Source: Escherichia phage RudolfBernhard_Bas96. From it: a stretch of DNA of 64,000 nucleotides. Positions within the stretch are counted from its first letter, which is position 1. Each line of letters opens with the position of its first letter. Position numbers and translations under genes: made by a program. Location of the stretch: the sequence record PQ850623.1. One strand, written 5' to 3'. The notes beneath the pieces are model-generated. The model had not been told where the DNA came from. It saw only the letters and a program-made list of their open reading frames with translations, and did no database searches. Below are positions 21,739-32,538 of the stretch, one piece after another.

Positions 21739-24700
21739 ATGTCAACATTTGACCGTCTGGCAGGTTTCGCAGACAGCATCACTAATGCTAAGCAAGTCGA
21801 TGTCTCTACTGCAACCTCTCAGAAGCAAGCTGCACAAGGGCAAAGCCCTTTCCAATTAACCCCAGAGAATGCTTACAATCTCCAGACCGGACGAGTAGGT
21901 AATCTTGGAATCGGTGCATTCGAACCAGGTTCACTTCAGGCAGATTTCACTCAAGCCTCCCCATTAGAAATCATTAATAAATACGGTAATGAGCAAGGTT
22001 TACAGATTCTTAATAGCCGAGCTAATGCTGCTGATGTTGTACGTCAGGACTTATCTAAACAACGTACTAACGCAGAAGCATTTGGCGATACTCTTTCTGG
22101 TGTTGGTCTTGGTGTTGCTAATACCCTTGGGGGCATTGCTGCTCTTGGTACAGGTCTGGTCAATGATAATGCCGGGGCATCCATTGCTTCCGGGATGGAT
22201 TGGTTGAATGAAGGTGTACACAATCTACAGTCTGATGCACTGAATGCTACCCGTAAAGTTGTTCAGAATCAGAACCAGATTTCTGCTCAAAAGAACCAGA
22301 AACTCTATGAACAAGACATCAAAAATGGGGAGAGCGATTTGGTTGCCTCCTTGTCTCGCATTGGTCGTGACGCTTTCGATTCTGTTGCTAACACACTTGA
22401 TAATGGTATGGCTGTTTCCGACGGACTGAGTGAAGGTGTTGGTTCTCTCTTTACTGGTGGTCCACTTATCCGTGGTGTATCTGCACTAGGTAAAGTAATG
22501 GTAGGGGGTGATAAAGCTGTTAAGGGTATTACCTTAGCTGCTGGGTTAGGTTCACGTCCTGCACAGGTTGCATTGTCTGCCGGTCGTGTTGCTGCACCTG
22601 CTATCGCAATCGGTGGTATGGAAGCAGGTGGTGCATACCAACAGACTGCTTCTGAAATCATGAAGATGTCCCATCAAGAACTGGCAAGTAAGTCTCCTGT
22701 TTACCAACAACATATTGCCGATGGTTTATCTCCTGATGAAGCACGACGTCAGGCTGCATCTGAAACAGGTATTATTGCTGCTGGCTTAACTGCTCCAGTT
22801 GCTGCTGCTACCGGTCCACTGGTATCTCGCTTTGAACTTAACCCACTTAAGGTAGGTTCACTGGCAGGTGCTGGTTCTAATATGCTGCGTGAAACTGTAG
22901 AGGAAGGTATTCAATCCGGCTTTGGTCAGTTCGCACAGAATACTGCAATCAAAGGAAACGTTGATGCATCCCGTGACACCCTCAAAGGGGTTGGTGAGCA
23001 GGCAGGTCTTGGTGCACTTTATGGGTTCGGTAGTGCTGGGGTTGCTCAGGCTCCTGGTGCAACTGTTAAAGCAGTTGGTGCTTCTGCTGGTCCTGCTCTT
23101 CGTACTACCCTGGCTGGTGCTTCTCTGGTTGGTAAAACATTAGCAAAAGCTGCCTCTCCTCTTACTAACATCCTGGTTCAACGTGGTGAAGAAGTTGCTA
23201 AGCGTAATGAACAAGCATCCCCTGTAGCTGATGCTACGGTTAATGCTGCTGCACAGGAAGCTGCTGCTCAGGCAGAACAAGCACAAGCAACTGTACAGGA
23301 AGCAGTAGATGCAATGGATATCACTCCAGAAGAGAAAGCTGCTGCTACCCAATACGCTGCTGATTTAACTCAGGCAATGAAGTTTGACCCAGTAGAATTG
23401 GAACAAGCTAACCCAGTAATCCGTGAAGCTGTTTCTGGCTCTACTAACCGTGTAGAAGCTATTCAGAAGATGGCTGACCTGGTTAATACTGCTGAAGACC
23501 CTAACGTTCAAATGGAAGCTGCAATCCAGATGTATGACAACATCATGTCTATGGATAGCTTCATTAACCGTGACCCAGGTGCACTGGCTAATCTGGAACA
23601 AGGTTCTCCTGCTGCTGCAATCGTAGACCAGTTCTCTGGCTTGATGGCTAACGTACAGAATACCCCTAAAGTACTTCGCGCATTCCGTGCCATCCATTCC
23701 ATGATTCAGGAACAGGCTGAAGCAGGTAAATTGAAAGCTACTGAAGAAGCCAATCAAGCCCAAGCAAACAATATTGCTATGGCTGCTGATGTGTCCCCAG
23801 AAGTGCTAGATGCAGATTCAGTGAACATGGTTCTGAAACATGCAAGTGAAGGTAAGATTACATTGGGGAATCGTCAACGTGCTGCCCTGCAATCTGCTGC
23901 TGCCTTGTTACAGGGTGCACGAGAGTTCGACGCTAAAGCAGAAGAACTAGGCTTACGTCCTCAAGACATTGTTAGTAAACAGATTAAAACCGACGAGTCT
24001 CGTTCTAATGAAGGACAGTACTCTGCGTTGCAACATGCGAAACGCATTCGTTCTGCGTATAACTCTGGTAACTTCGATTTGGCCTCCGCTTATCTGAGCG
24101 ACTTTATGAAGTTCGCCCAGCACATGCAGAATAAGGTCGGAGCGTTGAATGAGCATCTGATTTCGGGGAATGCGGATAAGAATAAGTCTGTTCATTATCA
24201 GGCTCTCTCGCCTTCCCGTGAATGGGTACGTAGTCGTACTGGCCTCGGTGTCAATCCGTATGATACCAAATCTGTTAAGTTTGCCCAGCAAGTAGGACTG
24301 GAGGCCAAAACCGTAGCTGATATTGCTAATGCACTTGCTACGGCTTACCCGGAGCTTAATGTTTCTCATGTGAAGGTTACCCCATTGGATTCACGTCTGG
24401 ACAAGCCTGCTGCCCAGGTAGTTAAAGAGTTCCGTCAAGGTGGTCTTGATGCCACTCAGTCTCAACAGACTAATGAACCAGTGAATCAGGTTGATGAAAC
24501 TCCTGCACCAGTGCAAGAGGACACTACTACTGTACAGCCTAAAGCTAAACCAGTGGTAGAAAATAAGACTGCTCCTACTAAGGAGACTAGTCCAAAAACA
24601 GAAGAAGTCTCTACTACTAAGCCTGAAACAGTAGATGCTACCCTTACTAATGAGGATACCATCGAGCAACCTACTGAATCGGAAAGAGATGCTTATGTGA

Positions 24701-32538: not shown

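Follow-up and report, generated by a model that had tools for sequence, protein, structure and literature searches.

Judged by sequence comparison, the gene at positions 21739-32538 of the analyzed stretch of DNA (the window; 64,000 nt) is the orthologue of N4 gp50, the giant virion RNA polymerase (vRNAP) that N4-like coliphages inject at the onset of infection, and comes from a G7C-like coliphage of the genus Gamaleyavirus, family Schitoviridae. The gene is already known and ordinary for its genus, except for a folded domain in a flexible linker. Very probably, the open reading frame (ORF) encodes a virion-packaged, injected single-subunit RNA polymerase that carries an extra globular domain, probably accessory cargo, in linker 1 and takes part in an N4-like transcription programme. 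Homology, residue equivalence and synteny support this assignment. The main result confirms an N4-family coliphage of the G7C type with a standard vRNAP; it is useful for annotation and adds no new biology.

Orthology, catalytic residues and domain layout

The vRNAP gene is one uninterrupted ORF of 3,599 aa plus stop codon and occupies 16.9% of the window, in agreement with the first-pass annotation, which had claimed a single ORF of about 3600 aa filling about 17%. In the ORF listing, the frame runs from 21721 to 32538 on the plus strand and opens on TTG. The in-frame ATG at 21739 was chosen as the start, since AGGAA is located upstream and the resulting N-terminus matches MSTFDRLAGF of N4 and G7C. 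At 45% G+C, chance cannot account for 3,599 consecutive open codons.

21727..21731, plus strand: Shine-Dalgarno-like AGGAA, 7 nt before the ATG (from sequence reading)
21739..32538, plus strand: complete CDS of the vRNAP (gp50 orthologue)

In a nucleotide comparison, 58 phage records spanned at least 80% of the gene, and its annotation exists already in dozens of GenBank phage records. The DNA identity was 95.1% to the annotated RNA polymerase gene of Escherichia phage vB_Eco_F22 and 92.9% to that of the 'virion RNA polymerase' of phage G7C (Gamaleyavirus, Schitoviridae). Alignment with N4 gp50 by MAFFT yielded 66.6% protein identity from end to end (3,467 aligned columns). When PDB chains were searched with phmmer, the full-length N4 vRNAP chains 11gp, 9pnq and 9pnr were matched with E = 0, as were the mini-vRNAP crystal structures 3q0a, 3c2p and 2po4 (1,662 bits; query residues 1136-2218). 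The four Pfam domains N4_RNAP_helical, vRNAP_dom_2, vRNAP_dom and vRNAP_plug all scored far over their cut-offs in the central domain. PF00940 missed its threshold, with 12 bits around motif A (gathering cut-off of 22 bits; E of 0.09), and kinship to this family holds only at the level of motifs and fold, as is the case for N4 itself.

Recognizable polymerase motifs are confined to the central third of the protein, and no Pfam domain was found in its first 1,000 or last 1,366 residues. This pattern could also be expected of a non-virion T7-like polymerase fused to unrelated sequence, or of an assembly artefact or pseudogene. However, the N-terminal third shares 60% identity with the NTD of N4 gp50 and the C-terminal third 69% with its CTD, and PHROG 2206 'virion RNA polymerase' covers both (E of 4e-250 for the NTD; E = 0 for the CTD). 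The frame is, moreover, unbroken and collinear with the 58 independent phage records, and the gene lies within the gp53-gp52-gp51-gp50 late/ejection operon. A fusion or artefact is extremely improbable and effectively refuted already.

The orthologue of N4 gp50 is laid out as follows.

21739..24480, plus strand: N-terminal domain (NTD), aa 1-914 (N4 NTD 1-919)
24481..24711, plus strand: low-complexity part of linker 1, Pro/Thr/Glu/Lys-rich, aa 915-991 (alignments)
24712..25107, plus strand: inserted globular alpha/beta domain, aa 992-1123 (alignments, AF2 model, family alignment A1)
25108..28398, plus strand: polymerase (mini-vRNAP) domain, aa ~1124-2220, 70% identical to N4 Pol (phmmer, Pfam)
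25405..25437, plus strand: promoter -11G residues R1223 (N4 mini R119) and W1233 (N4 mini W129) (alignment context)
26317..26319, plus strand: R1527, Arg of T/DxxGR (N4 mini R424) (alignment)
26722..26724, plus strand: motif A catalytic Asp D1662 (N4 mini D559), codon GAT (alignment)
27055..27084, plus strand: motif B, from K1773 (N4 K670) to Y1781-G1782 (N4 Y678-G679) (alignment)
27898..27900, plus strand: motif C catalytic Asp D2054 (N4 mini D951), codon GAT (alignment)
28426..32535, plus strand: C-terminal domain (CTD), aa ~2230-3599 (N4 CTD 2123-3500)
28735..28749, plus strand: HELVH, the HExxH zincin-like motif of CTD subdomain C1, aa 2333-2337, conserved with N4 HELVH at 2228

The codons of motifs A, B and C lie exactly where the first-pass annotation had put them, with AAA (K1773) at 27055 and Y1781/G1782 at 27079/27082 in motif B. 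In the MAFFT alignment, D1662, K1773, Y1781, G1782 and D2054 paired with residues 1556, 1667, 1675, 1676 and 1948 of full-length N4 vRNAP; with an offset of 997, these correspond column for column to D559, K670, Y678, G679 and D951 of mini-vRNAP. The distance between the two catalytic Asp residues, claimed to be 392 residues as in N4, is indeed the same in both proteins (2054-1662 = 392 = 951-559). The 15-residue contexts of the motif A, B and C residues were identical or near-identical to N4, and the 11-residue contexts of R1527, D1662, K1773, Y1781 and D2054 were identical. Alignment to N4 gp50 and mini-vRNAP had been named as the check on the polymerase reading, with a lack of positional equivalence counting against it; since motifs A, B and C are positionally equivalent to those of N4, the reading was not refuted. 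In N4, R424, K670, Y678, D559 and D951 are catalytic residues (Kazmierczak et al. 2002, as quoted in PMC2784036), and R119 and W129 contact the promoter -11G (PMC13492108).

Outside the polymerase domain, a Gly/Ala-rich hydrophobic stretch of the NTD (approximately aa 229-300) corresponds to predicted membrane-spanning helices of N4. Residues 915-991 showed the lowest conservation of any segment of the gene, and N4 linker residues 907-1006 have been described as low-complexity (PMC13434306). For the N4 CTD, roles in autoinhibition and encapsidation are known (PMC13434306, PMC13492108), and the HExxH motif of its subdomain has been described (PMC5512222, PMC13434306).

Genome context and transcription programme

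A tblastn search with N4 proteins revealed that the window is collinear with N4 from gp69 through gp16, including gp51, gp52, gp53, gp45 and gp16. The genes gp53, gp52 and gp51 are located directly upstream of the vRNAP gene on the same strand.

19203..21644, plus strand: gp52 and gp51 orthologues, ejection proteins (tblastn with N4 gp52, 57% identity, and gp51, 49%)
21652..21671, plus strand: terminator-like hairpin separating gp51 from the vRNAP gene; a terminator is annotated at the corresponding position in PhAPEC7
32544..32569, no strand assigned: bidirectional terminator-like hairpin right after the vRNAP stop codon; annotated likewise in G7C and PhAPEC7
37536..38339, minus strand: gp45 orthologue (N4 SSB), 57% identity, full length
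62755..63972, minus strand: gp16 orthologue, RNAP II large subunit, 405 aa, 69% identity to N4 gp16 residues 1-404; Pfam RNA_pol PF00940 with E of 2e-15

The directions of transcription converge at the hairpin behind the vRNAP gene, and the sign of the GC skew flips there. In N4, the SSB gp45 activates the host sigma-70 RNAP at late promoters. An RNAP II subunit had been proposed at 62755-63972, and this region was found to encode the gp16 orthologue on the minus strand. With the window stopping within the gp16 region, the genes gp15 and gp2 as well as the early hairpin promoters, which N4 carries at its genome end, fall past base 64000; the closely related phage G7C has both gp15 and gp2. Within these bounds, homology and synteny support the three-polymerase programme suggested by the first-pass annotation, with vRNAP, gp16 and gp45 in N4 gene order. 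Ejection roles of gp51 and gp52 have been reported for N4 (PMC13434306).

How the protein is packaged and injected, its use of hairpin promoters and the temporal programme are extrapolated from N4. By this analogy, a few copies of the vRNAP would be packaged via the CTD and, upon infection, would pass the tail after gp52 and gp51. The NTD would anchor the protein at the inner membrane, the role of the N4 NTD (PMC13434306). The central T7-like domain would recognize DNA-hairpin early promoters, with R1223 and W1233 reading -11G. In catalysis, metal would be bound by D1662 and D2054, and the motif B residues K1773 and Y1781 as well as R1527 would take part. Prior to promoter binding, the polymerase may be autoinhibited by its HExxH-bearing CTD. 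Early transcripts would lead to RNAP II (gp15/gp16), expected to transcribe the middle genes, and late genes would then be transcribed by the host RNAP together with the phage SSB (gp45).

The domain inserted in linker 1

Relative to insert-free Gamaleyaviruses, the linker between NTD and Pol contains a clean in-frame insertion of 149 codons (447 nt; approximately 24660-25106). The insert was found in 28 phage records, is missing from about half of the Gamaleyavirus records and is absent from N4, NAN33P5 and PhAPEC7. The second insert of G7C, also exactly 149 aa long, was considered as a diverged duplicate; this origin was rejected because BLASTP found no similarity between the two. An origin from an intein or other mobile element was considered as well; no intein-like features were noticed by reading the sequence of the insert, the boundaries of which lie in the low-complexity linker.

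A structure model of the insert was generated with AF2. The single-sequence model was poor (pLDDT of 52) and was discarded; with an alignment of 19 sequences, a pLDDT of 91.7 and a pTM of 0.85 were reached. Independently, BFVD contains the same fold in a vRNAP fragment of phage pSb-1 (TM of 0.93). Sequence searches gave neither a family nor a function: no Pfam family was matched by any member of the family alignment A1, PHROG returned no match, the insert profile matched PDB sequences at chance level only, no solved relative of the fold was found in the PDB, and there was no similarity to any hydrolase.

The failure of these searches to return a known function or fold would be compatible with a neutral spacer, i.e., a hitch-hiker without a function of its own that is tolerated in a disordered linker. 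N4 and many Gamaleyaviruses do without the insert, and the low-complexity linker tolerates changes in length, as the second, unrelated insert of G7C illustrates. However, the fold was predicted with confidence, and eight residues (S1006, P1007, L1009, G1013, D1021, H1022, R1045 and Q1071) are invariant in alignment A1 among homologues that are only 23-43% identical. The dN/dS ratio of the insert was 0.06 at a dS of 0.46, as compared to 0.10 for Pol; purifying selection acts on the insert, with a constraint no weaker than that on the polymerase domain. Also, members of the family have been retained in many giant proteins that are unrelated, and one is a standalone ORF. A neutral spacer is rather unlikely.

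The members of the family were recovered by exhaustive HMMER search. In a word-indexed protein database, the insert alone gave no match and profile A1 retrieved only the standalone homologue (P0010); apparently, these giant proteins are missed by such a database. Besides the standalone ORF, the homologues lie in giant phage polyvalent proteins, many of them unrelated. Their companion domains comprise SLT, ResIII/Helicase_C of the SNF2 type with a methyltransferase (MTS), ddrB-ParB, LPD22/38/39 and InPase. The standalone homologue adjoins a ParB_N gene and a prokaryotic ubiquitin-like cluster and sits among replication-type rather than structural genes. Its neighbourhood offers no clear functional clue.

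Since phage-type polyvalent proteins contain members of this domain family, the best inference is that the insert would be an accessory cargo module entering the cell together with the polymerase. A service in ejection or virion assembly instead of the cytoplasm, e.g., as an extra 'bead' contacting gp51/gp52 or the portal, or by periplasmic or membrane action in channel formation, is quite unlikely. It would fit the position of the insert next to the membrane-anchoring NTD, the co-occurrence of SLT lytic transglycosylase domains in several homologue-bearing proteins (P0003, P0009) and the lack of a peptidoglycan hydrolase among the N4 ejection proteins (PMC13434306). On the other hand, the insert itself does not resemble a hydrolase, other carriers combine the domain with DNA-directed modules (helicase, methyltransferase, ParB), and the standalone copy keeps company with replication-type genes.

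As a cargo module, the insert may, tentatively, found an undescribed domain family of polyvalent proteins with the invariant signature S-P-x-L...G...D-H...R...Q, possibly an injected effector acting, e.g., in anti-host-defence or early take-over; its presence or absence might then reflect host-defence-driven module exchange within an essential virion enzyme. Conserved and as yet uncharacterised, this module of injected polyvalent proteins may repay biochemistry, although its value is modest. According to N4 cryo-EM, linker 1 is a long disordered tether, and the 'beads-on-a-string' protein passes a channel of 30-35 Å (PMC13434306, PMC13492108). Natural linker-1 variants with 0, 1 or 2 extra folded beads are ready-made tests of the folded cargo tolerated by the ejection route.

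Comparison with known systems

With N4 gp50 (2PO4, 3C2P and 3Q0A for mini-vRNAP; 9PNQ, 9PNR and 11GP for the full-length protein), the vRNAP described here shares the layout NTD-linker-Pol-linker-CTD, the catalytic residues, the -11G readers, the plug and helical Pfam domains, the HExxH motif of the CTD and the flanking genes. It exceeds N4 gp50 by 99 residues, almost wholly through the globular domain of linker 1 (~120 residues), whereas linker 1 of N4 is low-complexity only and has no globular domain. Further differences are short indels in linker 2 and the CTD and a single cysteine, C1706, where N4 gp50 has none.

The Gamaleyavirus vRNAPs (G7C, F22, PhAPEC5, Bp4, NAN33P5 and PhAPEC7) are 92-96% identical at the protein level and share the genome position and terminators. 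They differ in the number of linker-1 inserts, which is 0 in NAN33P5 and PhAPEC7 (3,450 aa), 1 in F22 and this phage (3,599 aa here) and 2 in G7C (gp50 of 3,748 aa). The steps in length are exactly 149 residues, yet the inserts are unrelated in sequence.

Phage-type polyvalent proteins, among them N4-like vRNAPs with fused ART, lysozyme or PBECR domains, have been described by Iyer, Burroughs, Anand, de Souza and Aravind (2017; PMC5512222). Like these, the present vRNAP is giant, multi-domain and encoded among late virion genes, and it carries the hub of RNAP and HExxH MPTase-like domain that defines the N4-like branch (PMC5512222). Its linker-1 domain corresponds to a shuffled accessory domain shared combinatorially. 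This domain fits none of the LPD models in Pfam; another 40 LPDs of PMC5512222 never became Pfam entries. In contrast to domains appended near the MPTase, the insert is located in the linker between NTD and Pol.

T7 RNAP and mitochondrial RNAP (PF00940) have the right-hand single-subunit fold and the motifs T/DxxGR, A, B and C in common with this vRNAP, which is too divergent in sequence for the Pfam cut-off (12 vs. 22 bits). By homology to N4, it would differ from both in using hairpin promoters on single-stranded templates, in its plug module, in its 3-4x larger size and in being packaged in the virion.

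The vRNAP gene and its homologues

The virion RNA polymerase (vRNAP) gene occupies a single unbroken plus-strand frame (21721-32538; ORF listing of the window). Judged from the sequence, ATG 21739 is the biologically sensible start: AGGAA lies 7 nt before it, and the product (3,599 aa; 16.9% of the window is taken up by the gene) begins with MSTFDRLAGF, the N-terminus of N4 gp50 and G7C gp50. The gene is bordered by two hairpins:

21652-21671, terminator-like hairpin between the upstream gene and the vRNAP gene
32544-32569, bidirectional terminator-like hairpin 3' of the vRNAP stop codon

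The second coincides exactly with terminators annotated in G7C and PhAPEC7, and the sign of the GC skew switches there; PhAPEC7 also has an annotated terminator at the position of the first.

By megablast, the gene matched 92 phage records, 58 of which covered at least 80% of it. The top match was Escherichia phage vB_Eco_F22 (95.1%; annotated 'RNA polymerase'), and other top matches were E20 (94.6%) and vB_EcoP_G7C (92.9%; annotated 'virion RNA polymerase'); all three belong to Gamaleyavirus, Schitoviridae. In a phmmer search of all PDB chains, full-length N4 vRNAP cryo-EM entries (11gp, 9pnq, 9pnr and others) were matched with E = 0, as were the mini-vRNAP crystal structures 3q0a, 3c2p and 2po4 (1,662 bits, query 1136-2218). 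Global alignment to N4 gp50 (from NC_008720) gave 66.6% identity over 3,467 columns, with 60% for the N-terminal domain (NTD), 70% for the polymerase domain (Pol) and 69% for the C-terminal domain (CTD). Four vRNAP-specific Pfam domains (N4_RNAP_helical, vRNAP_dom_2, vRNAP_dom and vRNAP_plug) lie in the central part, and PHROG 2206 'virion RNA polymerase' spans the N- and C-terminal thirds.

The codons that the first-pass annotation had assigned to motifs A, B and C were named correctly: GAT 26722 (D1662), AAA 27055 (K1773), TAC-GGT 27079-27084 (Y1781-G1782) and GAT 27898 (D2054). Their equivalence to the N4 motifs was borne out by the alignment, in which D1662, K1773, Y1781, G1782 and D2054 correspond to full-length N4 residues 1556, 1667, 1675, 1676 and 1948, i.e., D559, K670, Y678, G679 and D951 in mini-vRNAP numbering (offset 997). 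The motif contexts are identical or nearly identical to those of N4 (TPLYVEADGVTNGPI, KRGIAKNPLTITIYGSGARGI, TLKIFDGMNIG). The 392-residue Asp-Asp spacing is, as the first-pass annotation had it, exactly that of N4, because Pol has neither gained nor lost residues between motifs A and C. The N4 catalytic set is R424, K670, Y678, D559 and D951 (Kazmierczak et al. 2002, as quoted in PMC2784036); R424 is kept as R1527. R119 and W129, which read -11G of the N4 hairpin promoter (PMC13492108), are kept as R1223 and W1233. This is a known gene with known motifs and a known role, annotated in many records, so the earlier observation is correct but ordinary.

The protein contains a single cysteine (C1706, window 26854-26856). 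G7C likewise has one, whereas N4 gp50 and NAN33P5 have none; the literature notes the lack of cysteine in N4-like vRNAPs as a feature that may bear on their entry into the cell.

Transcription programme and genome context

In N4, the vRNAP NTD binds lipid and anchors to the inner membrane together with gp51, linker 1 forms a disordered tether ~100 residues long, and Pol is a right-hand T7-like enzyme that the plug and the motif-B loop keep shut until a hairpin promoter is bound. The CTD, consisting of subdomain C1 with HExxH and the all-helical subdomain C2, packs on Pol for autoinhibition and is also needed for encapsidation, and the 'beads-on-a-string' multi-domain layout was proposed to permit transit of the 30-35 Å tail channel (PMC13434306, PMC13492108). 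Every sequence element required for this mechanism was found in the present vRNAP. By homology, membrane anchoring, hairpin-promoter opening, CTD autoinhibition and channel passage would proceed here as in N4.

With 41 N4 proteins as tblastn queries, collinearity with N4, in reversed orientation, extended over the whole window: gp69/gp68 (terminase region) map to the left end and gp16 to the right end. Orthologues located with the N4 proteins include:

directly upstream of the vRNAP gene, gp53, gp52 and gp51, i.e., the tail plug and two ejection proteins (PMC13434306)
37536-38339, minus strand, gp45 SSB
62755-63972, minus strand, gp16 (69% identical to its N4 counterpart along all 404 residues; Pfam RNA_pol, E 2e-15)

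Homology and collinearity support the proposed three-polymerase programme for vRNAP, gp16 and gp45. Since gp15, gp2 and the early-promoter genome end lie beyond base 64000, that part, including the early hairpin promoters, is inferable from relatives only; gp2 and gp15 are present in G7C. So supported, the programme is known biology of a known genus.

Two further loci were observed. The gp44 orthologue (Sak4-like/AAA_24 ATPase; 38383-39928, minus strand) is split, with N4 residues 1-109 at 39928-39596 and 109-248 at 38802-38383. The ~790-nt gap contains a 163-aa HNH endonuclease ORF (38969-39460; PHROG 374, E 4e-39), an Rfam match to a group I intron (38851-39086; E 3e-10; 48.4 bits, just under the gathering score of 50) and a second, weaker group I intron piece (39261-39605, Rfam). 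On these matches, a group I intron that includes a homing endonuclease probably interrupts the gene. Rfam also called an 85-nt tRNA at 34329-34413, minus strand (54.4 bits), with, in the anticodon arm, 24 nt at a point where 11 are modelled. ARAGORN found no tRNA in the whole window, and no ORF of at least 80 aa lies in 33880-36130 around the call. In relatives, the same region carries annotations of tRNA-Ile, tRNA-Cys and 'tRNA-OTHER', and the call may represent an intron-bearing or otherwise aberrant tRNA.

An additional domain in linker 1

Compared with N4, this vRNAP is 99 residues longer, nearly all at one site in linker 1. Against the insert-free NAN33P5 and PhAPEC7 (both 3,450 aa, the latter from its annotation; the multi-sequence linker alignment comprised this phage, N4, G7C and NAN33P5 only), the difference is a clean in-frame 447-nt indel at ~24660-25106. 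Both flanks align well, but the ~40 nt immediately 5' of the gap have diverged, and its left edge can be placed only approximately. The G7C vRNAP (3,748 aa) carries the same insert and a second one of 149 residues upstream (gp50 residues ~945-1093, NC_015933; placed relative to window ~24600). The two 149-residue inserts did not align by BLASTP and are unrelated in sequence; with them, Gamaleyavirus vRNAP lengths step through 3,450, 3,599 and 3,748. Among 50,697 phage records searched by tblastn, the present insert occurred in 28, all Gamaleyavirus vRNAPs (at least 92% identity), and none was found outside these. Thus, about half of Gamaleyavirus carry it.

Neither Pfam nor PHROG has a model that the insert matched. 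When 1.84 billion representative proteins were searched exhaustively with HMMER, 21 homologues emerged, down to ~30% identity. Aligning 19 members of the family showed eight residues to be invariant (here S1006, P1007, L1009, G1013, D1021-H1022, R1045 and Q1071). With this alignment, AlphaFold2 predicted a compact alpha/beta domain (pLDDT 91.7, pTM 0.85); as a single sequence, the insert reached a pLDDT of 52 only. Between this phage and G7C, dN/dS of the insert domain was 0.06 (dS 0.46), a value that is indicative only, from one pair and 132 codons; Pol gave 0.10 and the low-complexity linker 0.37. We conclude that selection maintains the insert as a functional accessory module.

One homologue, P0011, is a distant vRNAP (3,597 aa) with N4_RNAP_helical. 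The others with any Pfam match are mostly giant multi-domain proteins:

P0003: SLT, ResIII/Helicase_C, MTS, LPD39
P0004: methyltransferase, ddrB-ParB, LPD39
P0005 and P0016: LPD38
P0007: LPD22
P0009: SLT
P0014: InPase

A standalone homologue (166 aa; 7294-7794 of a phage-like metagenomic contig, ENA ERZ23491061) adjoins a 585-aa ParB_N/HTH_ParB protein and lies upstream of a prokaryotic ubiquitin-like cluster (Prok_Ub, Prok-E2, JAB, ThiF).

A limited literature search found no mention of the linker domain, and no entry among the Pfam, PHROG and PDB entries searched covers it. It sits in already published genomes and is a modest lead rather than a surprise. The partner domains of its homologues are hallmarks of phage-type 'polyvalent proteins' (Iyer et al. 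2017, PMC5512222), and in those terms the insert most likely acts as a cargo or effector domain that is injected. A role in ejection is possible, as is a tolerated spacer. N4-like vRNAPs already form a polyvalent-protein branch, defined by RNAP and an HExxH MPTase, in which ART, lysozyme or PBECR modules occur occasionally (PMC5512222).
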